Made by a program: the position numbers and the translations under genes. Below the pieces are notes generated by a model that was given only the letters and a program-made list of their open reading frames with translations, did no database searches and was not told the origin of the DNA. A DNA stretch of 64,000 bases from an uncultured bacterium (GTDB taxonomy: Bacteria > Patescibacteriota > Minisyncoccia > UBA6257 > 2-01-FULL-56-20), in NCBI GenBank assembly GCA_963844965.1, contig CAWJQC010000009.1, forward strand, positions 1 through 64,000, written 5' to 3'. Numbering within the stretch: the first letter of the stretch is position 1; each line of letters starts with the position of its first letter. Positions 1,174 to 60,882 of the stretch are shown one piece after another.

Positions 1174-2757
1174 ATGACTTATAAAGATTATGGCGAGAGG
1201 ATGGTAAGGAACATCGCGTTTGCCGTCAAAAATGAAGGACTCGGCGAATTTCCGAAACAATACGGGCAGTTCATGAAGCTCAGCCAGTGGACGAGGAAAC
1301 TTATCGGCAGAAATTTGCCGCTGGTCTTGTCCGACAACTACGAGCATTTCATGGCCTGCTTGCCTCATCTGGATTATGCGGCTCAGCATGCGCTTATCCG
1401 TAAGCAGATTGGCGGCTTCACGACTGTCGCGGGTTTTTGGAAGTGGCTTGAATTTTTAAGCCACAAGGTCACCGAAGCCGAAGTGGAATTGGTCGCTGAT
1501 TTTTTCTCGGGAAAACACAATGGCTATCCGCGCCAATTCAACCGCGATTACTGGATGCATGTTGTGAAAGAGTTTGGCGGTTACCTGCCCCTGCGTATCG
1601 AGTGCATCGGCGATGGCGGGACCTTTACCGGAGTGCCTTTCCCTGTGGCGCAAGTATACGGCGAAACACCCGCGGTGTGGGTTAATGAACCGATGTACGT
1701 TCAGATCGGCCACTTATCCCATGTCGCGACGATTGCCGGGCAGTTCGCGGAAATCCTCGGCGACCCGTTCCGGTTCATTGAGGTTATGTTTCGCGCGCTT
1801 CATAACAGCGACGAATCGGATGATGTTCTGCTCGCCATGCTTATCGGCGGGGGAATCATTTCCACCTCCAACGATCTCGGTGCATTCGTGAACGGTGCTC
1901 CGTTCAAATGCGCCGGAACCACGGGGCACTGCTGGTATCAACAGTACGGCACGCTCAAAGACGCTCTGCGGGACCTGCTTTCAAGCCCGCTCGGTCCTTA
2001 TGCAACCGTATTGCTTGATGTCTATGACCATAAGCACGGGTTTAATGAGCTCATGGAACTCATTCGTGAGGGATTGCCCGCGCCTTTCGCCGACCGTCCT
2101 GACAGCGGTGATACGCTGGAGCTCGGCATGCACGATCTCATGGTCCTGCAGGACGAAGGAAAAGAGATAAATGTTGTATTTGAAGACGGAAAGAAACCGA
2201 AAGACGCGCTCATCGCCGAAAACCACAGGCGGCAGCTGGGTCTAGATAAGAAGCGGACGCTCTACGGAGCAGGAGGCGCGTTCCTGGGGCAGCGCAAAGA
2301 CCTCGAAGCGGCCTACAAGGCGTGTTTCTTCCACAACGGCACTCCCGGCCACCGGACAGATATCGTTGAGACGATGAAAATCTGCCTGGACGACCCGATG
2401 AAGCAATCCATTCCGGGACTGGCACAATGTTTCTACGATCCCGAGAAAGGATTCTACACGGTCGGGTCTGCCGACGAAGCGACGCCGCCCGGTCATCGTA
2501 AGGGATACTTCATTCTCTACGACAATTTGACGGAACCGGGCAATCCCTATTTCAATGCCGACTATGACCCGGACAATCTGGCCAGATGTAGAGCCATAAC
2601 GGATGGCGTTGAGCGCTCAAAGGAAACCCGCCGCCTGCTTGGTCTCTCGTTCACACTGGACGTGGAACCGAATAGAACGCTCATCAACATGACGAAGGCA
2701 GTGCGGGAAAAACGCAGTGCCATTTACAGCCGGGCCCTTTCTTTGGTCGGGAAGTAA
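1174..2757 (+). CDS. nadV: nicotinamide/nicotinate phosphoribosyltransferase family protein (NAMPT-like)
   Basis: 527 aa from ATG 1174, preceded by GGAGGA at about 1161. Contains the RPDSGD motif characteristic of the NAPRTase/NAMPT family and a length typical of NAMPT. The ORF-track start at 1075 has no RBS. Confidence 0.6.
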   Translation: MTYKDYGERMVRNIAFAVKNEGLGEFPKQYGQFMKLSQWTRKLIGRNLPLVLSDNYEHFMACLPHLDYAAQHALIRKQIGGFTTVAGFWKWLEFLSHKVTEAEVELVADFFSGKHNGYPRQFNRDYWMHVVKEFGGYLPLRIECIGDGGTFTGVPFPVAQVYGETPAVWVNEPMYVQIGHLSHVATIAGQFAEILGDPFRFIEVMFRALHNSDESDDVLLAMLIGGGIISTSNDLGAFVNGAPFKCAGTTGHCWYQQYGTLKDALRDLLSSPLGPYATVLLDVYDHKHGFNELMELIREGLPAPFADRPDSGDTLELGMHDLMVLQDEGKEINVVFEDGKKPKDALIAENHRRQLGLDKKRTLYGAGGAFLGQRKDLEAAYKACFFHNGTPGHRTDIVETMKICLDDPMKQSIPGLAQCFYDPEKGFYTVGSADEATPPGHRKGYFILYDNLTEPGNPYFNADYDPDNLARCRAITDGVERSKETRRLLGLSFTLDVEPNRTLINMTKAVREKRSAIYSRALSLVGK

Positions 2758-2763
2758 CAGTTC

Positions 2764-2794
2764 GCGGTGGAGAGAATAAAATCTCTCCACCGCG
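2764..2794 (+). terminator. strong stem-loop downstream of nadV (gcggtggagaga-ataaaat-ctctccaccgc), no clear U-tract
   Basis: 11-bp perfect inverted repeat immediately 3-prime of the nadV stop. Confidence 0.35.
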
Positions 2795-2951
2795 CCCCAC
2801 GCGAGTGATTTATTGCGGAGTAGATCTTTCGCGCGGAGTTCAAAAATTTAAAAAAAGCAGCTTGGCGGCGCATCGGGCAATGACTGAGCAGGAAAAATAA
2901 AACTGCGCGGGCTTATGGCCCGACCTCACTCGAATTCAAACCCAAGATAAC

Positions 2952-3853
2952 CTACGGCGACAAGTTTACGTTCCCGCTGTAATAATCAAACAAGGCCTTG
3001 ATACCGGAGAGATTGCGTTCCCACTCGATTGTGTCGTGAGTTTGAAGTTCTACTGTGATCGCCGGAATGCCGATGGACGCAAGCCACCCTTCGGCGTCGC
3101 CGGTGACTGGGTAGCTGTTGAACGATTTCACAGCCGGGTACGCGGCGGCATGTGCGTATGCGTTCATGATGTCGAGCGTCGTGGGAAGGATGCCGGCATT
3201 GCACTGCGATGCGTACACGGCATTTGCCTGACTGTGCCAGAAGATCGCGGCGGCCGGATGGGTTTGTAGGACGAAATTCCGGATAGCCGCAGTTTCCGGT
3301 TCAGAGAATGGTCCGGACCCCGCGCTCACCGTCTTTCCCTGCCATGTGCCCGTGGACTGCCAGTTGCAGTCAAAGTTCCGGTTAAGATCAACCCCGTGCG
3401 CGTTGAACCGCCCGGCGCCAGGGAAATATTTGTCGGCACGTCGGCGATCGTAAAACGCCCAACTTTCCCGATCACTTTATATACTCCATCGGGATTCACG
3501 GACGGGACTACGGTGACCGAGAGAGTTGCGGGAATGATCTCGGGATGCGCATCAAGATAGTCCACAAACGCATACGCCAGAAGCACGCTGTTCCATTCAT
3601 ATCCGCCGTGCATGCCGCCGACAAAGAGAAGCAGGGTCTTTCCGTTTCCATATGTATATGCGTCAATGGCGCGCTCTTCCACAGAGGTACCGATGACCGT
3701 GTGTTTAGGTCCGGAAGTTTGGGGTTCAACTTGATTTACGGGAGTGGGCGGCGGCGCTTGCTCGCGCCTGCTCGATACCACAAATATGCCCACGCCGAGC
3801 GCGACGAAAACGAGCGCAGCCGCGATAACCCACTTCGTTCCGGAGCGACGCAT
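2952..3853 (-). pseudogene. M14 zinc carboxypeptidase paralog, interrupted by a frameshift (about 3330-3440)
   Basis: N-terminal 175-aa ORF (TM helix, HGGYEW, NPDG) and C-terminal 125-aa ORF (SAGSGPFSEPETAAIRNFV...) are collinear with the intact neighbouring paralog but lie in different frames. Confidence 0.6.
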
Positions 3854-4776
3854 TATTTTCCGTAGTATTGAAGCAGTGCCTCTACGCCAGCCAGATTCTT
3901 ATCCCACTCAACATCGGTATGCGTCGTGAGGAGAACACTGATCGCGGGGATGTTTTGCGCGGCTAACCAATTAACCATATCGCCGGTTAATTTATAGAAA
4001 TCGAAGCTCTTATATGCCGGGTAACCGGATGCGGCCGCGTAGATGGAGGTGATTTTCTTTGTCTCGGCCAAAATCCCATTGTCGCAGCTTGAGGAGAACA
4101 CGCCGCCGGCGGCGCTGTACCAGGCAACAACCGCAACCGGATTGTGCGCGCCTACGTAATCCCGTATGGCCCGGCTTTCCGGCTCGGAGAATGCCGCGCT
4201 TCCTCCGCTCACGGGCGTAGTTTGCCAGACGCCGGTGGCTTGCCAATCGCAATCAAAGTTGCGGCTAAGATCCACATTGTTCGCGTTAAAGCGGCCGGAT
4301 ATCTGGACGGCCGATGACGATGGTACGTCGGACGCCGTGAAACGAGCCGTGGTGCCGACGACTTTATTCAGACCGTCCGGGTTCAGCACCGGAATGACCG
4401 TAACTGTCACGTTCTGGGGAATGGCTTCGGGATGTGCCTTCAAATAATCCATAAGGTCATACGCGACAAGAGCCGTATTCCACTCGTACCCGCCGTGAAT
4501 GTCGCTGATAAAAAGCAGTTCCTTCGCGCCCGAGCCGTAGTGGTATGCGACGATATCGCGTCCTTGGACAGATGTGCCGATGACCGTCTCGCCTCCTGCC
4601 GTGTTTGGGTTCGGCGTACTACTCGCTTGCGTCACGCTCTGCGGCTGACTCGTGGTTGAGGTTGGTGCCTGATTCTGCGTGATGTTCACGGTACCGGGAG
4701 AACTCCGGGTGAAGATGTATATACCGACGCCGACGAGCACAATAACAACAACGAGTGCGATAATTATTTTTTTCAT
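3853..4776 (-). CDS. M14 family zinc carboxypeptidase (gamma-D-glutamyl-diamino-acid peptidase-like), N-terminal TM anchor
   Basis: 307 aa. HGGYEW (HxxE zinc ligand), VLNPDG, and C-terminal TTHTDVEW, typical of M14. N-terminal hydrophobic helix plus S/T/Q-rich linker. Confidence 0.7.
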   Translation of the reverse strand: MKKIIIALVVVIVLVGVGIYIFTRSSPGTVNITQNQAPTSTTSQPQSVTQASSTPNPNTAGGETVIGTSVQGRDIVAYHYGSGAKELLFISDIHGGYEWNTALVAYDLMDYLKAHPEAIPQNVTVTVIPVLNPDGLNKVVGTTARFTASDVPSSSAVQISGRFNANNVDLSRNFDCDWQATGVWQTTPVSGGSAAFSEPESRAIRDYVGAHNPVAVVAWYSAAGGVFSSSCDNGILAETKKITSIYAAASGYPAYKSFDFYKLTGDMVNWLAAQNIPAISVLLTTHTDVEWDKNLAGVEALLQYYGK

Positions 4777-4906
4777 CCCGTTTAGAAGCAGATCGCGGTC
4801 AGGCGATCTGCAAAATTATTTTTTATATACGACGTTTTGTTTATTCTTTTCTAATTGTATATTATGTAACGCGACCGTGGCTTCTAACGGGATTCATAGT
4901 AATCCT

Positions 4907-4937
4907 ATTATACCATAAAGCGGTCAAATTTTCTCAA
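4907..4937 (-). promoter_or_regulatory. sigma70-like promoter for the M14 peptidase gene (TTGAGA ... TATGGTATAAT, extended -10)
   Basis: Reverse strand reads cgcTTGAGAaaatttgaccgcttTATGGTATAATagg, about 130 nt upstream of ATG 4776. Spacer slightly long. Confidence 0.4.
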
Positions 4938-5226
4938 GCGAGGGTTTATCCCTTGGCGCAAAATGTCCCTCGCCGAAGTTGAACGCAAACGAGCGCCTGT
5001 CTGCCGGCGAGGCAGGCGTTCGGCGGCGCATCGGGCCATTCCTACAGTCGTTTCGCGCCGAGGAAGGCCTCAAATGGTCGTTTTACCAGTACGGTTTTTT
5101 TGTTTGCTCTTACGGCCGATTCGTTGTATTATTATAACCGTACTACTTCGCGTTCGCGCGCCCCTCATGCAGGGGATTTTATTTCTGCGTACCGTCGTGT
5201 TCGGCGGCTAAAATAATTTAATTGCT

Positions 5227-7062
5227 ATGGAATTAAGGAATGTTGCTATAATTGCCCACGTTGACCACGGTAAGACCACATTGGTTGATGCCTTATTGAA
5301 GCAGTCTTTGAATTTTAAGCTGAAGGTTGACGCGCCGAGCGAACTCATCATGGACTCTAACGAGCTTGAGCGAGAGCGGGGGATTACTATTTTTTCCAAG
5401 AACGCGGCCGTGAGGTACGGAGACATAAAAATAAATATCGTGGACACGCCTGGCCACGCGGATTTCGGCGGCGAAGTGGAACGCATCATGCGCATGGTGG
5501 ATGGCGTGCTTCTCCTCGTGGACGCGAAAGAAGGGCCGATGCCGCAGACGAAATTCGTTTTGCGGAAGGCGATTCAGGCTGGGCATAAGATAATCGTCGT
5601 CATAAGCAAGATTGATAAGCCGGATGCGAGGCCGGAGTGGACGTTGAATGCGACCTACGAACTTTTCTTTGAGCTCGGAGCGAGCGAATCGCAGATAGAG
5701 TTTCCTGTTGTCTACACCTCTGCCGTCCAGGGAAAAGCCGGCATGACGAAAGATTTAAGCGCGATGAAAAATATAGAACCGGTTTTCCAGACCATAGTCA
5801 AATACATTCCGGCTCCGCTCGTAAACGAGGGAAAACCTCTGCAGATGCTCACGGTAAATCTTGCCTACGACAACTACAAAGGGAAATTGGCCGTCGGCCG
5901 TCTGTACTCGGGGACACTGAAGAAGGGGATGACCGTGGCGCACATCAACCGCGCCGGGAAAATTGAAAAAGCCGGTTTGAGCGCCGTGATGCTTTTTGAC
6001 GGATTGGGCCGCGTGGACGTTCGGGAAGCACCAGCCGGGGATATCGTCGCCGTCGCCGGCATTCCCGACATTACTATCGGCGAAACTATCGCCGACGCGG
6101 AAAATCCGGTCGCCCTGCCGATAATAGAGATAGACGAGCCGACAATAAAAATGACATTCGCCGTGAACACTTCGCCCTTCCGCGGCAGGGAAGGGAAGTT
6201 TACGACTTCAAGAAATCTCAAGGAACGCCTGGAGCACGAACTGGAAACTGACGTCGCTCTTTCCGTGATGCCCACGGAATTTACCGACCACTGGACCGTC
6301 TGTGGCCGCGGCGAACTGCACCTCTCCATCTTGATAGAAAAGATGCGGCGTGAGGGTTATGAACTGGAAGTTTCTAAGCCACAGGTTATTTTGAAAGAAA
6401 AGGACGGGAAGAAACTGGAACCGATGGAACTTACTTCCGTGGAAGTTCCCGAAGCGTATTCCGGCGCGGTGATAAAACTCATGGGAGGGCGGCTCGGCGT
6501 GATGAAGGACATGCGCGTGGATAAGAATATCGTGTTCATGGATTTTGCCATACCGACGCGCGGACTCATCGGCATACGCGACAAGTTTCTCACGGCAACG
6601 AAAGGCACGGGCATCATGAACAGCATTTTTTTGGGATACGAGGGATACAAGGGTGAATTGAGTTCCGTTCAGCACGGTTCTATTGTCGCTACCGAAGGAG
6701 GACTTACGAACAACTACGGACTGGTCACGGCGCAGGGACGCGGCATTTTGTTTTTGGGTCCTGGCGTGCCCGTGTACGAAGGAATGGTTGTCGGGAAAAA
6801 TGCCAAGGCGGGCGATGTTGCGGTGCATGTCTGCCGCCAGCGCCAGCTCACCAATTTCCGCGCCAAGAACGAAGGGCTTGCCGATCAGTTGGAAACGCCG
6901 CTCAATCTTTCACTTGAGGACGCTCTGGACTATATCGGCGACGATGAGCTTGTGGAAATCACGCCCAAGAGCGTGAGAATCCGTAAACTGTCCCTCACCG
7001 AAGTTGAACGTAAACGAGCTCGCTCGGCGGTGAATCGGACCGAGGTTTTGCAAGATAAATAA
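5227..7062 (+). CDS. typA: translational GTPase TypA/BipA
   Basis: 611 aa, N-terminus MELRNVAIIAHVDHGKTTLVDALL (G1 motif), DTPGHADF (G3), length and domain order of BipA. Confidence 0.92.
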   Translation: MELRNVAIIAHVDHGKTTLVDALLKQSLNFKLKVDAPSELIMDSNELERERGITIFSKNAAVRYGDIKINIVDTPGHADFGGEVERIMRMVDGVLLLVDAKEGPMPQTKFVLRKAIQAGHKIIVVISKIDKPDARPEWTLNATYELFFELGASESQIEFPVVYTSAVQGKAGMTKDLSAMKNIEPVFQTIVKYIPAPLVNEGKPLQMLTVNLAYDNYKGKLAVGRLYSGTLKKGMTVAHINRAGKIEKAGLSAVMLFDGLGRVDVREAPAGDIVAVAGIPDITIGETIADAENPVALPIIEIDEPTIKMTFAVNTSPFRGREGKFTTSRNLKERLEHELETDVALSVMPTEFTDHWTVCGRGELHLSILIEKMRREGYELEVSKPQVILKEKDGKKLEPMELTSVEVPEAYSGAVIKLMGGRLGVMKDMRVDKNIVFMDFAIPTRGLIGIRDKFLTATKGTGIMNSIFLGYEGYKGELSSVQHGSIVATEGGLTNNYGLVTAQGRGILFLGPGVPVYEGMVVGKNAKAGDVAVHVCRQRQLTNFRAKNEGLADQLETPLNLSLEDALDYIGDDELVEITPKSVRIRKLSLTEVERKRARSAVNRTEVLQDK

Positions 7063-7183
7063 ATATCACGCCGACCGGGGGTGCGGGGTTTTTGTCTCTT
7101 GGGACGCTGGAGTAAGAGGCTCAAACTGGCTAATTTCGGTCATAATATGACTGTGGATAACTTTCGGTTTACTTTCGGTATTA

Positions 7184-7199
7184 TGGTATAATCAAATCT
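7184..7199 (+). promoter_or_regulatory. extended -10 promoter (TGgTATAAT) ending 7 nt before the ATG: predicted leaderless transcript of the LexA-methyltransferase gene; upstream TTTCGGT repeats (7125-7180)
   Basis: Sequence ggtattaTGgTATAATcaaatctATG. Three TTTCGGT copies and a GTCATaatATGAC palindrome lie just upstream. Confidence 0.45.
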
Positions 7200-8654
7200 A
7201 TGATTACAAAAAGACAAAAACAAATTTTAGATTTGATTACGAGCTATACCAAGAAGCATGGATTTGCTCCTTTATTAGAAGAAGTTAGAAAGCGGTTGCA
7301 CCTACGTTCAATTTCAACGGTTCACCAACATGTTGAAGCTCTCAAAAATAAAGGTTATTTGCTAAAACAAAAAAATCAACGCCGCGGTATAGAGATATCG
7401 AAGTCCGAAAAACTAGTTCAAGTGCCACTTCTCGGCACAATTGCCGCTGGTCAACCGATTGAAGCCATTGAAGATAAAGAAAATATGGTTGTGCCGCGAA
7501 ATAAACTCCCCAGAACTGGTGAAGTATATGCCCTGCGAGTACAAGGCGACAGTATGATTGACGAAAACATTCACGATGGCGACACCATTCTAGTTAAAAA
7601 ACAAAACACCGCCGAAAATGGCGACAAAGTAGTCGCGCTCCTTAATGGGAACGAAGCGACGCTTAAAACTTTTTATAAAGAAAGGGGGCAAATACGACTA
7701 CAACCAGCAAATAAAAATTATCAGCCAGTTATAGTAAAAAACGGGCAACAACTTTCTTTGCAAGGCATCCTATTTGACGTGATCCGAACAAGCGAAGCAG
7801 AACAATCAACTAAATCCTTCGTTTTGTCACCCCGAAAAGATGCCCTGCGACGAGGCAAAATCTCCGACTACCTCAATAAAGTTTACAATGGTGACATAAT
7901 GCACGTTCTAAAAAACTTGCCCGACAACAGCGTTGATATGATATTCGGAGATCCTGATTACAATGTTGGCATAAGATATGGCAGTAATAGTTATACGAGA
8001 GACTTCGATGATTATATAAATTGGTATATAGAACTTACCAAAGAATCAATGCGTGTGTTAAAAAATGACGGCAATATTTTTATGATGAACTACCCGAAGC
8101 AAAATGCACATCTCCGCGTCAAATATTTAGATTTATACTTTCCACACATTAACGAATACGTTTGGGTTTACAATACAAATGTCGGACATACACCAAAAAG
8201 GTTTACAACGGCACATAGAACCATACTCCATGTCAGAAAATGCGCTAATAATAAGTTTTACAAAGACGCCGTCGCACTTCCCTATAAAAATCCAACGGAT
8301 AGAAGAATCCGACAAAATTTAGCGAATGGCTCAAAAGGAAGAATGCCCTATTCTTGGCTTGAGTTTAATCTTGTGAAAAATGTGAGTAGAGAAAAAACTT
8401 ACCATGCCTGCCAAATCCCACAAAAACTAACCGAGATGCTAGTTAAAGCGTCAACCAAACAAGGGGATATAGTGCTAGTTCTCTTCGGTGGCAGTGGTGC
8501 GGAAATAGATGTATGTAGAAATTTAAAACGCCAGTTTATCTCCGCTGAAATAGATAAAAAATACTGCGATATTATAAACAGCCGACTTGCAAACGGCTAC
8601 ATTGATAAGCAATATCGCCTTGGACCACGAGGCAAGAAAATATCTATGGGATAA
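7200..8654 (+). CDS. fusion protein: full LexA-like repressor (HTH + S24 autopeptidase) fused in frame to a beta-class N6-adenine/N4-cytosine DNA methyltransferase
   Basis: N-terminal part: wHTH, IAAGQP (Ala-Gly cleavage site), GDSM (Ser nucleophile), TLKTF (Lys). C-terminal part: motif IV FGDPDYNVG before motif I LVLFGGSGAEID, which is the beta-class order. One continuous 484-aa ORF in about 36% GC DNA. Confidence 0.75.
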   Translation: MITKRQKQILDLITSYTKKHGFAPLLEEVRKRLHLRSISTVHQHVEALKNKGYLLKQKNQRRGIEISKSEKLVQVPLLGTIAAGQPIEAIEDKENMVVPRNKLPRTGEVYALRVQGDSMIDENIHDGDTILVKKQNTAENGDKVVALLNGNEATLKTFYKERGQIRLQPANKNYQPVIVKNGQQLSLQGILFDVIRTSEAEQSTKSFVLSPRKDALRRGKISDYLNKVYNGDIMHVLKNLPDNSVDMIFGDPDYNVGIRYGSNSYTRDFDDYINWYIELTKESMRVLKNDGNIFMMNYPKQNAHLRVKYLDLYFPHINEYVWVYNTNVGHTPKRFTTAHRTILHVRKCANNKFYKDAVALPYKNPTDRRIRQNLANGSKGRMPYSWLEFNLVKNVSREKTYHACQIPQKLTEMLVKASTKQGDIVLVLFGGSGAEIDVCRNLKRQFISAEIDKKYCDIINSRLANGYIDKQYRLGPRGKKISMG

Positions 8655-9282
8655 TCTTTCGCATACTGGCTGCGTCAAAATGATTTTCGCAAACAAGTAT
8701 AAGAGCCGCGTAAAACTTGTCGCGCCCCGCGCCCTTGCTTGTTGGCCCACCATTCCTGTTTTGTAATCTATATGGCATTGTTGAGCCGCATTCTTTCCAA
8801 GATAATTTATAGTTTAGATCCTCTTGCGCCCACATCCATTTCAGCATCTCTAAAAATTGCCGGGAATCAATACCACCGAGCTTTGGCGGTTCTTTATCAA
8901 TAGTATTATTATCATGTAGCCGTACTATCATTTTCCAAAATTTTTTATTTTTCTTTTTGTGAGTTTCAAAATCTTTTAAAAGATTTGCATAGGTAAAGCC
9001 AACCGAGCTTCCTTCATGCCCTTTTTCAAAGGGAACAACCTCAAAATCATAAAGATTTGCCCAAAGAGATGAATTTTTATTCGGCCTTTTTAATGTGCGT
9101 TGTTTTAACTTATAGCCCGGATACCGAATACCGATACGGGGTTTCGCGATAGTACCTTCCACAATAAATAAATGAGAACCAACCGGTGCGGTATGATAAG
9201 GGAGTAATTCCAGTGTTAAGTTTTTAAAAAAATTCAAACCTCCTGAAATATGTAGTTCGTGTATTTTGGTAGATTTAGACAT
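8644..9282 (-). CDS. hypothetical protein convergent with and overlapping the methyltransferase 3-prime end; candidate cognate restriction endonuclease (unverified)
   Basis: 212 aa from ATG 9282 (MSKSTKIHELHISGG...). Same AT-rich islet as the MTase. No recognisable motif beyond a possible D...E.K pattern. Confidence 0.4.
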   Translation of the reverse strand: MSKSTKIHELHISGGLNFFKNLTLELLPYHTAPVGSHLFIVEGTIAKPRIGIRYPGYKLKQRTLKRPNKNSSLWANLYDFEVVPFEKGHEGSSVGFTYANLLKDFETHKKKNKKFWKMIVRLHDNNTIDKEPPKLGGIDSRQFLEMLKWMWAQEDLNYKLSWKECGSTMPYRLQNRNGGPTSKGAGRDKFYAALILVCENHFDAASMRKIIP

Positions 9283-9287
9283 ATTAT

Positions 9288-10055
9288 TTATAAATAATTT
9301 ATTTTTTTGAGCCAGAATTCGTTTTCCCATTCCCATAGCCGTTTCGCGCCGAGGAAGGCCTCAAGGTCGCTTTGCCAATAGGGGAATTCCTTGAGTTCAA
9401 CGTCGCCTTTGAGTTCGCTCCACTCGTGCGGGCAGTCGCGCATCACCTGGTTGCCCCATTGGATTTTTACCTTCTCCCGCCCACCCTTAACTCTTTTTAT
9501 CGCGCCGCAGAGATTACAGGTCTGTATCTGGTCAATCCTTAAAATCCACCTCGTCTGAAGATTTTGGAACTGGTCCTTCAGGGCGTCCATGTAAGCCGCC
9601 GTTTGCAGATTGTAGTCGCGGTAAATTGCTTGGGAAGTTTTTATGTCCAGAACGCCGAACTTGCCGTCAAGAAGCGCCAAGGCATCAACCGTACCGGCGT
9701 AGCGGTGGTCGTAGTGCACGACACGCCGCTCCACGAGCTCCGGCGTCACCTGAATATTCCTGCCCTCAAAATATTTCAAAAATGCCGCGATTGCCGGCTT
9801 CACCGAGAGGGGAATGTCCGGATTTTTGCCGAGGAGGATGCCCTCAACCGTTTCGTGTATCAGTGTTCCTTCCTCGGCGGATTTGTGCGAAACGCTCTGC
9901 GCCGCCTTAAAATTTTCCGCCTCGCCGTAAAAACGCAAAAGCGCCGGCTTCGCCTTGATGGAGACAATTTTCGTCACGCGCGGATACCAAATGCCGTCAA
10001 TGGTATATCCGCAGGCATTTTTGAAACTTTCCGCGTCTTTGAATTCCCCGAACAT
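9288..10055 (-). CDS. RecB-family PD-(D/E)xK nuclease, Cas4/AddB-nuclease-like with 4-Cys cluster
   Basis: 255 aa. One N-terminal Cys (NACGY) and three C-terminal Cys (CNLCG...DCPHEW). VDAL...LDIKT (D...DxK) and QTAAY (QxxxY) motifs typical of Cas4/RecB nucleases. Confidence 0.55.
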   Translation of the reverse strand: MFGEFKDAESFKNACGYTIDGIWYPRVTKIVSIKAKPALLRFYGEAENFKAAQSVSHKSAEEGTLIHETVEGILLGKNPDIPLSVKPAIAAFLKYFEGRNIQVTPELVERRVVHYDHRYAGTVDALALLDGKFGVLDIKTSQAIYRDYNLQTAAYMDALKDQFQNLQTRWILRIDQIQTCNLCGAIKRVKGGREKVKIQWGNQVMRDCPHEWSELKGDVELKEFPYWQSDLEAFLGAKRLWEWENEFWLKKINYL

Positions 10056-10059
10056 TTTA

Positions 10060-10108
10060 AATAATTTTATTCCTAAAATAAAAAATGAGCAATCCGCGCG
10101 GATTGCTC
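10060..10108 (-). terminator. rho-independent terminator after the SAM-methyltransferase gene (gagcaatccg-cg-cggattgctc + T-tract on minus strand)
   Basis: 10-bp perfect stem overlapping the stop codon, followed by attttttatttt on the transcribed strand. Confidence 0.6.
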
Positions 10109-10715
10109 ATAGACAACGAAAGATATAAAGGACGTAATGTTCATCGTTGAAATCTTTGTCCCGATACCCGCCACCCAAATCTTTCTTCAGAACCAGTTTG
10201 GCGTTGGGTATTTTGTTCAGAAAGGCTCTGCATTCCCTGAAACGCTCCGTGCACCACTTTATGCTCTTGATTTCGCCGATGGCACAAGCCAATACACCGC
10301 CCATCTTAACGAGACGTTGCATTTCGGTGATTGACTTCGGACCGGTTAGGCCCACCATCGCGCTTGATACAACCACATCAAATTTTTTATTGGGGAAGGG
10401 AAGGCGATAGGCGTTGGCATGGGCGCATCCACGATATACCAATTTTACCGCGGCCTCTTTCAAGCGTTTTTCCGCAATATCAACACCGATAAGAGTACCT
10501 TGCCATTCGCTTTGTTGTAGTTCCTGTCCGACAAAACCTGGACCGCAACCCACATCAAGAACCAGCTCGCCGCCGCAGAGAAGGGGAGCGAGATTGCGCA
10601 CTAATAACTGCGGTACCTGCCAGCCCTCCAATCGGGATCCTATCTCGTAAACATCTAAGGAATTATAGAATTGTCGGGCTTGTGTCGAGGTTCTCACGCG
10701 AGTCCTCCTCCACAA
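10107..10715 (-). CDS. class I SAM-dependent methyltransferase (small, non-DNA-MTase type)
   Basis: 202 aa with VLDVGCGPG glycine-rich SAM motif and DIAEKRL motif II. Confidence 0.6.
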   Translation of the reverse strand: MWRRTRVRTSTQARQFYNSLDVYEIGSRLEGWQVPQLLVRNLAPLLCGGELVLDVGCGPGFVGQELQQSEWQGTLIGVDIAEKRLKEAAVKLVYRGCAHANAYRLPFPNKKFDVVVSSAMVGLTGPKSITEMQRLVKMGGVLACAIGEIKSIKWCTERFRECRAFLNKIPNAKLVLKKDLGGGYRDKDFNDEHYVLYIFRCL

Positions 10716-31138: not shown

Positions 31139-31278
31139 CAATTTCTAATTTCTAATATCTAATTTCTAAATAACACCGAAATCCCAATGCCCAAAATTCT
31201 AAACGTTTGGGATTTGCGATTTGTATATTGGGATTTGTTTAGGATTTAGAAATTTAAATTTAGAAATTTCTGCCATAC
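31139..31278 (-). repeat. AT-rich intergenic element copy A (tagaaatt repeats + ttgggattt repeats) abutting the start codon at 31130
   Basis: Shares an exact 31-nt core aatttctaatttctaatatctaatttctaaa, followed by tgtttggg.tttg.gatttg...ttgggattt.tttagga.ttagaaatt, with copy B at 33395. Confidence 0.6.
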
Positions 31279-33394: not shown

Positions 33395-33492
33395 AAATTT
33401 CTAATTTCTAATATCTAATTTCTAAACAATATGTTTGGGGTTTGTGATTTGGGTGTTGGGATTTATTTAGGAATTAGAAATTAGGATTTAGG
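33395..33492 (-). repeat. AT-rich intergenic element copy B abutting the secF start codon and overlapping the secD 3-prime end
   Basis: Same 31-nt core and ttgggatttatttaggaattagaaatt tail as copy A. Confidence 0.6.
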
Positions 33493-43440: not shown

Positions 43441-45250
43441 GTCGACAGCCGGCCGGAAATCGGCACCTGGAGCACAGCGGCAGCGCTACACATAGACACC
43501 AACGGCAACTCGATCTTCGATCCCGACAACCTCGATTTCACCAACCGCGACCTGGTCTACAGCTTCGGCTTCTCCACCGACAACATGTTCTCCGGCAACT
43601 TCAGCCCGATCGGGGCCGCAGCGGCCGACGGCTTCGACAAGCTGGCCGCCTACGGCAAGATCGGCACGCAATATCGTTGGATCGTCAACACCAATAACGA
43701 CGGCGTGCCGGACGATGGTGGTCAACGACCCGGCGAACATCAACGGCTTGCCGGTCGCCGGCAACTTCGACGGCAACGCCGCCAACGGCGACGAGGTCGG
43801 GCTGTTCGACGGCGCAACTGGTGGCTCGACACGAATCACGACTACAAAGTCAACACGAAAATCGTCAGCTCGTTGCGGGGTTATCCGATCGTGGGCGACT
43901 TCGACGGCGACCACAACTTCGACCTGGCGACCTACCAGGTCAACCCGGTCAACAAGTTCTTCTTCGAGTTGGAGCCGCTAGTGCCACGCCGGTGTTCAAG
44001 AGCATCGATGCCGCGAGCCAGTTCGGCTACATTGGCGTTCGCTCACGGCCGGTCGCGGCCGACATCGAGCGCGACGGCACGACCGACGTGGGGCTGTGGG
44101 TGCCGGACCGCACCGGCGCCACGGGCGACCACATCGGCGAATGGTCGTTCCTGCTCTCCAATTTCGTAGACGCAGCAAGGGCACGGTCAGTACGCTGGAC
44201 CATCAGTTTTCGCCGACGCCGTTGAGCACGACCTGCTTCGCCCGCTTCGGCAACGAGTTCCCTGCCGATGGTGGGTAATTTTGATCCGCCGCTGGCCAGC
44301 GTCAAGGCGGGGCCGGCGATTTCCGGCGTGGTGCTGACCGTTTCCGGGACGAAGCCGACGGTCACTTGGGCGGTGGACGCCGGCCGAGCATTGCCGCGGC
44401 GACGTTGTTGGTGGACGGCAAGGCGGTGGCGGTTTCCAAGCTATCGGGCAGCGCGACGCACGGCAGCTATTCCGCCGGCGCTGGCGGGGTTGAACCTGGC
44501 GGCGGGCAGTCACAGCTTTGTGATCAAGGCCACGGACTCGGCGGGCACGCCCGCCACGACGCAATGCACGGGCACGTTCGACGTCGTCGGGCCGACGATC
44601 AAGGGCGTGGCACTGTCGGTTGCGAAGGGCCTACTCACGTGGAACGCGGTTTCGCCGAACGGCATGGCCGGCGTTGCCCTGATGATCGACAACAAGTCGG
44701 TGTCGAAGATCGCGCTACGCCGTCGGAATTACGCTGGGACGATGGGTTTGCCGGGGATCGGCACCACAAGTACGTCATCACGGCCACCGACAAGACCGGC
44801 AAGAGCGTGACGCTAAGCGACAGTTTTGTCGTTACCGCCCCGACGATCAGCAACGTAGCGATAGCGGCTGCGAAGGGCTTGATCACGTGGACGGCTGCGG
44901 CTTCGCGGCGTGGCGAGTGTTGGTCTGACGATCGACGGCAAGCGAGTGTCGAACACAAGCGGTCCCAACGCGGCGGGGAACTGCTACGGGTTGGCGGGCA
45001 AGCTGCCGGCGGGCACGCACAAGTACGTCATCACGGTCACTGACAAGGGTGGCAAAGCGGTGACGCTTGGCGGTTCGTTCGTGGTGAGCAAGCCGTCCAA
45101 GGCTGTGCAGAGCACCGCGATATCGAGTGCAAGCCGGCTCTGCGTTGTCCGATTCGGCCAAGGTTGCCTGGCTTTACGATCTTGGCGGTTTGACCGGCAC
45201 ATCGTCGAGTACGACCAAAAAGAGCACGTCCGCCCAAGCCGCGGACACCG
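43441..45250 (+). pseudogene. 5-prime-truncated, multiply frameshifted gene for a secreted FG-GAP / Ig-like-repeat surface protein (GC about 65%, foreign-looking)
   Basis: Protein-like segments in alternating frames: NTNNDGVPDD, AGNFDGNAANGDEVGLFDG and IVGDFDGDHNFDL (FG-GAP-like), then three approx. 100-aa Ig-like repeats (..GSHSFVIKATDSAGT.. / ..HKYVITATDKTGKSVTL.. / ..HKYVITVTDKGGKAVTL..). At least 6 frame changes. Confidence 0.5.
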
Positions 45251-51223: not shown

Positions 51224-51401
51224 ACCGCCGCCTCCAAAATTTTCTGCGTTCTTTCCGTAAACATGGAGTAATCGCGAATAATGCGAATCTATTTTAAATA
51301 ATGCGAATATTATTATTAGTGTTATTTGCTATCATTCGCATTATTAGCGAACACTCCGAATTATAGTCCTATTGGCAATCTTGTCAAGCGATTGCTAATA
51401 C

Positions 51402-59791: not shown

Positions 59792-59882
59792 ATTTATTAT
59801 CTATTAACGAATTAACGGATTTGAATTTTTGATACGTTAATTCGTTAATCCGTTAATTTACCAATTTGATTTAATTAAAAGC

Positions 59883-60464: not shown

Positions 60465-60531
60465 TGCGCTGGAGAAACGATTTTAGTTTTGCGCAAACAC
60501 CCAAAGTTAATAAAACAAGCCGATTAGAATT

Positions 60532-60882
60532 CTAATCGGCTTTTTGTATCAGTTCTTTGACAATGGCCATTGCCCGAAAACGAATAATCGCGACGTAATC
60601 CTTATCGGCCAAATCGGTTAATGTTTTTCTTAATTTCTCCAGGCCTTCCTCACTAAATTTCGAGGCGCGCACGATTCGCGTTTTTTTCGTAATTCTCAGA
60701 AAGGTAAACCTACCATCGGGAAAAACTCCGAGGACAATTTCGTTTTTTGAGAAATCATAAAGATCCTCATCGTCTTTACAGGAGACAACACGAAAAACAA
60801 TCGCCTCCCTACCCCGGAGCAAATGCTCTTCAAGCGGGTGGCCCTCGTTCAGATTCAATCTCAACTTCCTGATCTTATCCAA
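60532..60882 (-). CDS. hypothetical protein
   Basis: 116 aa, no recognisable motif. Confidence 0.35.
   Translation of the reverse strand: MDKIRKLRLNLNEGHPLEEHLLRGREAIVFRVVSCKDDEDLYDFSKNEIVLGVFPDGRFTFLRITKKTRIVRASKFSEEGLEKLRKTLTDLADKDYVAIIRFRAMAIVKELIQKAD

Follow-up and report, generated by a model that had tools for sequence, protein, structure and literature searches.

Upstream of typA in a 64,000-nucleotide stretch from an uncultured member of the Patescibacteriota (assembly GCA_963844965.1, contig CAWJQC010000009.1, positions 1 to 64,000; hereafter the window), displaced copies of two gene 3' ends, one from typA itself and one from a PD-(D/E)XK nuclease gene, lie fused to each other at 4957-5094, and the live ends of the same two genes are found further downstream on either side of an AT-rich islet. 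This arrangement raises the question of how the two ends came to be joined and displaced, and what they record about the state of the locus before the islet. The initial annotation had interpreted the segment as the original typA/nuclease junction surviving as a fossil, left behind either by site-specific integration into gene 3' ends or by a history of duplication and deletion. With a probability of roughly 0.6, 4957-5094 is instead a non-functional pseudogene scar, namely a displaced and decaying duplicate of the point at which typA and the nuclease gene converge.

Structure of the relic

The relic is located in a 450-nt spacer between the divergently transcribed genes for an M14 peptidase (3853-4776, minus strand) and TypA/BipA (5227-7062, plus strand). 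Based on repeat finding and gapped alignment, it consists of two collinear pseudogene pieces, typA codons 586-605 followed by nuclease codons 224-243 on the opposite strand, each of them about 88% identical to its live gene (i.e. about 12% diverged), and both halves keep the order and orientation of the live gene ends. In the typA half, copied from source segment 6982-7041, positions 4957-4994 correspond on the plus strand to 6982-7019 (codons 586-598; 34/38 nt identical) and, collinear with this part, 5019-5037 correspond to 7023-7041 (codons ~600-605; 15/19), the copy ending 21 nt short of the typA stop codon. Between the two parts, a palindromic block of 24 nt (4995-5018, plus strand) has replaced 3 nt of typA and lengthened the copy by net 21 nt, in agreement with the short palindromic insertion noted earlier at this position. 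The nuclease half (source segment 9327-9383) is encoded on the minus strand. Its first part, 5036-5073, matches 9327-9364 (codons 231-243; 35/38) and includes a perfect 25-mer (5049-5073 = 9340-9364), while its second part, 5076-5094, matches 9365-9383 (codons ~224-230; 15/19) and is separated from the first by a frameshifting 2-nt insertion, AT, at 5074-5075 of the gapped alignment. Two stop codons are present in this half, one at 5042-5044, where TGG (W241) became TAG, and one at 5083-5085, where CAA became TAA. The former is the reason why the displaced copy ends after GAKRL, and the reading EAFLGAKRL plus stop given in the initial annotation is explained by it. Both halves are joined at a shared 2-nt CC microhomology (5036-5037), and missing at this joint are the final 21 nt of typA, the spacer and, on the nuclease side, the terminal 39 nt (12 codons plus stop). 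Hence, both displaced matches reported initially are real and even longer than claimed, with the one correction that the partner of the 25-mer is 9340-9364 and not 9349-9373.

With up to 3 mismatches allowed, the window contained no further occurrence of either relic core, and 100 shuffles gave 0 matches. In a blastn comparison of the window against itself, the relic pairs were the only significant short direct repeats not belonging to paralogues (E values of 1.7e-10 and 1e-6). Generic intergenic repeats occurring at many loci can therefore be dismissed, as the cores are unique in the window. When the entire spacer (4777-5226) was searched by blastn-short and blastx for further relic material or decayed genes, only the two pieces described above were obtained.

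Ancestry and decay of the relic

Comparison with homologous genes reveals on which branch the individual changes occurred. The typA half and live typA both carry Ser (TCC) and Val (GTT) in the motif ...K(L/M)SL(T/A)EVERKRA..., two sites at which typA of all relatives has Tyr/Phe/Leu and Asn/Ile, respectively, reading ...YLTENERKRA... or similar. Likewise, the nuclease half and the live nuclease gene share a derived CTT (Leu) codon in SD-L-EAF, a site occupied by Phe in nearly all homologues and by Phe or another residue in 119/120 of the best homologues listed. Judged by these shared states, both halves were copied from the lineage's own typA and nuclease genes. At other sites the relic has kept the ancestral state and the live gene has changed: two Arg codons read CGC in the typA half vs CGT and CGT in live typA, and the nuclease half retains TAC and AAC vs TAT and AGC in the live nuclease gene. 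According to outgroup comparison, Thr to Ala, TGG to TAG, CAA to TAA, the 2-nt insertion and the 21-nt insertion are changes found in the relic only. Overall, change on the relic branch amounts to ~0.08 per site and on the live branch to ~0.1 per synonymous site. As both halves are equally diverged, a single event is indicated, and not a recent one; the relic dates this duplication to ~0.1 substitutions per site ago. The substitution pattern is that of neutral decay and argues for a duplicate that arose within the lineage and has been drifting since. The relic thereby combines what is expected of a pseudogene remnant, i.e. lineage-derived states in common with the live genes, disabling mutations and a neutral substitution pattern.

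A functional element, be it an antisense RNA directed against the nuclease mRNA or a leader or decoy regulating typA, is a very improbable alternative to such decay. The 25/25 perfect block and a strong plus-strand hairpin at 4990-5022, whose G-U pairs work on this strand only, might be taken as signs of a function, but the hairpin belongs to a 21-nt element with dispersed copies (see below) and is thus nothing specific to this site, the relic region has no match in Rfam, the fold of the whole region is no better than that of shuffles (z = -0.8 and -0.65), and the substitutions are pseudogene-like. The perfect block itself was rejected as a sign of selection, being not improbable at 12% divergence: by our own calculation, a mismatch-free run of 25 nt has a probability of ~4% for a given stretch and a higher one for any such stretch within 57 nt.

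Even less credit can be given to an assembly chimera or to chance similarity. Chance is excluded by the absence of matches in the shuffles and by the significant blastn E values. A chimera might be suspected in a metagenome-assembled contig for which no second independent assembly of the relic exists, yet a mis-join can yield neither 12% divergence and ancestral states nor two collinear fragments with indels.

Origin of the relic

The ancestral configuration of both genes can be deduced from relatives, the loci of which (L numbers) were found in genome and metagenome collections using the nuclease as query. In nine relatives, typA converges on the nuclease gene, the two being spaced by 17 nt (L018), 25 nt (L107), 62 nt (L100) or 145 nt (L067), overlapping in their stop codons (L034, L108), or separated by 0.66-2.5 kb of unrelated cargo (L104 6708-7366, L011 10768-13241, L037 10756-13189). 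This cargo encodes trigger-factor-like and pilin-like proteins in L011 and nucleotidyltransferase-like and oxidoreductase-like proteins in L037. A junction that is tight in some relatives and holds varied cargo in others is therefore an old one which has been invaded repeatedly. Uninterrupted junctions (empty sites) in L018, L034, L107 and L108 are available only from relatives whose nuclease is 51-67% identical; in those where it reaches 70-92%, typA is not located downstream of the nuclease gene, which is followed by variable cargo and then by the polB-exo/L9 backbone. Among about 60 loci, the DNA just past the nuclease stop codon is highly variable, with different cargo preceding either typA or the polB-exo/L9 backbone, and on the basis of this comparison the region is regarded as a hot spot for insertion and rearrangement. 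The relic marks the same gene-end junction, following a conserved nuclease gene, as such a hot spot in bacteria of the candidate phyla radiation (CPR). Going by the source names of its homologues, the bacterium sequenced here is a CPR member related to Candidatus Liptonbacteria. To the right of the nuclease gene, synteny (S-adenosylmethionine (SAM)-methyltransferase, Mur ligase, M23 peptidase, glutamyl-tRNA synthetase) is kept in L039 and L040 and breaks exactly at the nuclease stop. The adjacency of M14 peptidase gene and typA was detected in no relative, neither in the loci from the nuclease search nor in exact-protein look-ups of the closest nuclease and typA homologues, and the closest typA homologues (84-85% identical) sit in other contexts; an exact look-up of the window's own TypA gave no record.

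Since the live nuclease gene keeps this right-hand synteny and live typA is intact, the relic is an extra copy. As it lacks both gene ends and the spacer, it does not represent the intact ancestral junction either, but a copy with an internal deletion at a microhomology; the last 39 nt of the nuclease gene, being conserved, were therefore once present in it. From left to right, the locus comprises the relic (typA end, then nuclease end), the typA promoter, typA, the islet and the nuclease gene, in which order only the position of the promoter is inferred, namely as downstream of the relic: a promoter scan gave the M14 promoter at 4843-4815 on the minus strand, left of the relic, as its sole sigma-70-like match and detected no typA promoter. 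This topology requires a history of duplication and deletion, i.e. the second of the two options raised in the initial annotation. Accordingly arranged, a unit reaching from ~5095 (~130 nt upstream of typA) to 9384 (97 nt inside the nuclease gene) would once have been present twice in tandem, either because the unit was duplicated spontaneously or because a circularised copy of it was inserted through a single crossover (Campbell type) at the 3' region of the nuclease gene. Later, the upstream copy would have lost its promoter and ~1.75 kb of typA by deletion, and only the right-hand end of the duplicated unit would have survived, in the dead space between the divergent M14 and typA promoters. 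The islet would have entered the live junction, probably with a crossover in the last nuclease codons and with no recombinase or att mechanism involved.

Whether the duplicated copy already contained the islet can be judged from distances. The relic halves are ~0 nt apart and their live counterparts 2.2 kb, which makes an islet-free source the most probable one. From an islet-free copy, a deletion of 60-80 nt is needed, compared to 2.3 kb from an islet-containing copy, where the ends of the deletion would moreover have to fall, by chance, within 21 and 39 nt of the islet on its two sides. By parsimony, the copy was thus probably free of the islet, and the relic would preserve the locus as it was without the mobile LexA-methyltransferase module that occupies it today. 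In this respect, the proposal of a fossil junction retains its core, although the fossil is a displaced and internally deleted duplicate from which gene ends and spacer are gone.

A short templated patch could produce a similar picture. Here, an islet-free junction copy of ~200 nt would have been pasted into the M14-typA spacer as break-repair filler or by template switching, and typA would never have been duplicated. Only ~140 nt of duplicate are detectable, and neither the body nor the promoter of a second typA can be traced; the source lies just 2-4 kb off, and adjacency of the halves would be directly explained. Nevertheless, such a patch still needs the internal deletion of ~60-80 nt that removed both stop codons, and a tandem duplication would be expected to leave the relic where it is, just upstream of the copied unit and equally oriented, whereas with a patch this position would be a mere coincidence. 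To our knowledge, templated insertions of this size are also poorly documented in bacteria. Overall, the patch is considered unlikely, though it is the strongest competitor of the tandem duplication.

Some observations weigh against the tandem duplication as well. Neither left of 4957 nor right of 5094 could a second typA promoter or body be recognized by blastn-short and blastx in 4777-5226, so that the large duplication is deduced from topology alone. No relative is near enough to display an intermediate state, such as two typA copies or a conspecific junction free of the islet; the best matches reach 92% (nuclease), 85% (TypA) and ~70-79% (flanking genes). The relic region is contained in one assembly only, as the independent Logan contig L001 ends inside typA. 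Finally, a relic derived from an islet-containing copy via a 2.3-kb deletion retains some likelihood.

The LexA-methyltransferase islet

The islet (7151-9287) differs in GC content from its surroundings (38.5% vs 52.7% for typA and 51.4% for the nuclease gene) and carries two genes, one per strand. The first one (7200-8654, plus strand) encodes a fusion of LexA (DNA-binding domain and S24 peptidase) with an N6/N4 methyltransferase, which was assigned to MTase_II by PADLOC (1.5e-123). The second one (8644-9282, minus strand) is an open reading frame (ORF) of 212 amino acids that found no family or PDB match in Pfam, NCBIfam, PADLOC and structure searches; its pairing with the methyltransferase gene, together with a helix-turn-helix (HTH) controller-like gene upstream in L130, suggests a putative endonuclease. 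When the islet genes were scanned with Pfam, NCBIfam and PADLOC, nothing beyond LexA, S24 and N6/N4 methyltransferase domains was returned, and the same scans identified no recombinase, integrase or transposase in the islet or in 5095-9384.

For this two-gene module, at least five different contexts were found. In the window it is placed between typA and the nuclease gene, in L131-L133 between typA and tRNA-Ser (islet at L131 2677-4750), in L129 between a 370-aa ORF and tRNA-Gln (7001-9074), in L130 next to DUF4238 and together with the HTH controller-like gene (231-2544), and in L134 next to DUF5343/HEPN (1841-3914). The partner ORF measures 209-212 aa across module copies. Its homologues are up to 94% identical and those of the LexA-methyltransferase fusion 74-81%; across module-bearing genomes, the islet proteins share 74-87% identity, although L131 typA is only 59% identical to that of the window. 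At the DNA level, homology to other genomes spans 7149-9284. The left terminus of the islets is conserved, as all of them (window, L129, L130, L131, L134) start with TGTGGATAACT (7151-7161 in the window), the reverse complement of the DnaA-box-like TTATCCACA. It is followed by two short direct repeats which are alike within an islet and differ between islets; in the window, ACTTTCGGT is found twice (within 7151-7199). This repeat pair is probably the operator of the LexA-like domain, and the fusion of a complete LexA repressor, including its self-cleaving S24 domain, with a methyltransferase hints at a control that may respond to DNA damage.

The islet lies directly downstream of typA also in a distant genome (L131 typA 5101-6918, L132 typA 2533-4353), and in other cases directly downstream of the 3' ends of tRNA-Gln (L129 6889-6962) and tRNA-Ser (L131 2533-2620; also L133), which suggests a preference for gene 3' flanks without recognizable att repeats. 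Between typA and islet of L131, a small and very basic ORF of 36 aa, MGKRKRARIIQKEERKKQLERIRIRRSKAARKLQAA, was noticed at 4955-5065 (minus strand). Low GC content, the tight junction in distant relatives and the multiple contexts of the module all support the islet as a foreign, horizontally mobile, restriction-modification (RM)-like insertion into the live junction, as had been supposed initially. A widely transferred RM-like module with a LexA-methyltransferase fusion is a by-product of this study.

The mode of integration proposed initially, in contrast, does not agree with the borders of the islet (~7151 and ~9287): searches for flanking direct repeats gave none in four contexts (window, L129, L131, L134), and the islet has no recombinase of its own. 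In an att-type scar, an element bringing along replacement 3' ends would have integrated at the 3' end of typA, of the nuclease gene or of both and displaced the originals. In a variant of this, an RM-driven insertion of typA plus islet would have been accompanied by a long target duplication, with 5036-5094 and 9327-9384 representing the target. Target duplications of this kind have been described for RM units (PMC2853133); formally, a 4.29-kb segment (typA plus islet) lies between the nuclease-derived repeats, the islet directly follows 3' ends of typA and tRNA genes, as outlined above, and the last 21 nt of the nuclease gene have 0% GC yet encode the conserved C-terminus, as if they stemmed from incoming DNA. 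However, the islet itself is not what the repeats enclose. The two displaced copies are found side by side, 2 kb from it and across typA, and only the nuclease-derived pair brackets a segment at all, one that includes typA. Live typA is native to the lineage, sharing unique residues with the relic, a typA-derived repeat has no place in the att model, and the extension of the nuclease gene claimed in its support is a conserved tail (see below). Considering also the missing recombination genes, both versions taken together are improbable, clearly more so than the templated patch. What likelihood they retain falls to a weak form in which typA plus islet is the insert, on account of the islet recurring right after typA in L131/L132 and of the 0% GC tail of the nuclease gene. 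A foreign origin of typA was likewise rejected. Its closest database homologue is 85% identical, which fits the distance of relatives (flanking genes ~70-79%), and its lineage-specific residues recur in the relic. Its product displays the Pfam domains GTP_EFTU, EFG_C and BipA_C.

The 3' end of the nuclease gene

The live nuclease gene (9288-10055, minus strand) has weak matches to PDDEXK_1 and Cas4, in line with a Cas4-like PD-(D/E)XK nuclease. Of the 120 homologues listed, the majority measure 253-257 aa, and 119/120 share the C-terminus ...AFLGAK(R/K)LWEWEN(E/D)xWLKKxGYL. The initial annotation had assumed the ORF to be extended by 15 AT-rich codons beyond GAKRL; since the tail LWEWENEFWLKKxGYL is present in 119/120 of these homologues, the 15 codons are the ancestral C-terminus and were not created by the islet. 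Two misreadings are corrected by the present analysis: neither does the relic represent an att site, nor has the nuclease gene been extended.

What is unusual is the composition of the very end. The final 6 codons and stop (KKINYL*, 9288-9308, minus strand) contain 0% GC, reading AAAAAAATAAATTATTTATAA where relatives have AAGAAGGTCGGGTATTTGTAA (KKVGYL*), so that the conserved end is still encoded despite seven AT-ward changes. A displaced copy of these last 21 nt was found neither in 4777-5226 nor in the self-comparison of the window. This composition suggests an islet boundary or crossover point inside the nuclease ORF; incoming AT-rich DNA bearing a nuclease-gene tail would probably have recombined within the stretch coding for WEWENEFW.

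Comparison with known systems

With bacterial duplication remnants in general, the relic has in common that a collinear partial copy of the same orientation lies directly upstream of its source, decays neutrally and has no detectable function. It departs from the usual case by keeping the junction of two convergent genes instead of a piece of one gene and therefore records how the locus, probably without the islet, looked when it was duplicated. The relic is, in summary of these likenesses, a real but ordinary kind of finding, i.e. a decaying duplication scar beside a horizontally acquired RM-like islet.

RM-linked rearrangements have reportedly been treated by Nobusato and co-workers in 2000. 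In integrase-dependent islands, displaced 3' ends of the target gene mark the borders, the att sites being located in tRNA/tmRNA genes or in the 3' ends of protein genes. Similar to these islands, a gene 3' end is present twice in the window and the final 21 nt of the nuclease gene look as if supplied by incoming AT-rich DNA; different from them, an integrase and repeats at the islet borders are missing, the repeat lies 39 nt before the stop codon, and a second gene 3' end is fused to it. The closest parallel for the islet is the RM-linked "insertion with long target duplication" (Furuta, Abe & Kobayashi 2010, PMC2853133). The islet resembles such insertions as an AT-rich pair of a methyltransferase and a putative endonuclease gene, without mobility gene, at gene 3' ends; direct repeats of unique host sequence exceeding 30 bp are associated, the GC value of the inserted DNA differs from that of the host, and its size stays below the limit of 20 kb. 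The methyltransferase is clear and its endonuclease partner putative. In contrast to the published cases, the RM unit here is not enclosed by the repeats (58 and ~80 nt), the two displaced copies being located next to each other beyond typA.

A 21-nt palindromic mini-element

The insertion in the typA half leads to a further by-product, a palindromic mini-element with presence/absence polymorphism inside essential genes. The relic copy has the core GTCTGCC-GGCGA-GGCAGGC (4999-5017) and folds on the plus strand into a 13-bp hairpin of -24.7 kcal/mol (z = -3.35). The family pattern, CCTGCCT-RCCGGNN-AGGCAGG, comprises exactly 21 nt. Within the window, 4995-5018 is the only copy, for which live typA provides an internal "empty site". 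Near-identical 19-23-mers are found in other CPR loci (L032 672, 4529 and 10893; L035 2051; L124 439), and a variant, CCTGCCTACCGGACAGGCAGG, occurs in the nuclease and typA coding sequences of L037 (10483-10503, 14453-14473) and in typA of L100 (2456-2476). Alignments show clean 21-nt (7-codon) presence/absence: the L037 nuclease contains an additional PLPTGQA compared to L034 and L108, while typA of L037 and L100 is 21 nt longer than that of L107, L034 and L108, the in-frame insertion adding 7 aa, e.g. LPTGQAG. An exact 21-mer is moreover present in 15 stretches (L141-L155) from 10 viral contigs of 42-66% GC, one of which holds six exact copies, and several copies are nested in other copies.

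A search of the literature yielded no description of this 21-nt element, and we know of neither a transposase nor any other mobilising enzyme that goes with it. Tentatively, it may be an undescribed ultra-small mobile palindromic element of Patescibacteria and their viruses, which would insert into intergenic DNA, in frame into conserved genes (typA, nuclease gene) and into its own copies; this interpretation is somewhat less probable than its opposite. Cyanobacterial small dispersed repeats were reportedly described by Elhai and co-workers in 2008. These repeats are also mentioned along with REP/REPIN elements, small palindromic mobile repeats (PMC3116915), and Rickettsia palindromic elements are a further example, occurring in coding genes (PMC10969869). 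The 21-nt element is similar to all of them in being small, palindromic and dispersed, with clean presence/absence, in-frame positions in conserved coding sequences and nesting in own copies, and dissimilar in measuring only 21 nt and in its distribution over CPR genomes and viral contigs of 42-66% GC.

Further features of the window

Left of the M14 peptidase gene, a second M14 paralogue (2952-3853) is split into two overlapping ORFs (3326-3853 and 2952-3329) that jointly match one M14 gene of L004, by which it is judged to be either a frameshifted pseudogene or the result of a sequencing error. On the other side of the locus, the SAM-methyltransferase gene has its stop codon overlapped by a perfect 26-nt palindrome, ATGAGCAATCCGCGCGGATTGCTCAT (10085-10110). 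With the T-run that follows it on the minus strand, this palindrome resembles an intrinsic terminator. Additionally, the self-comparison of the window revealed a diverged tandem pair of ~230 nt at 44592-45067, a repeat common to 31140-31268 and 33396-33491, and further repeats, including several long palindromes, at 51265-51357, 59803-59849 and 60510-60549.

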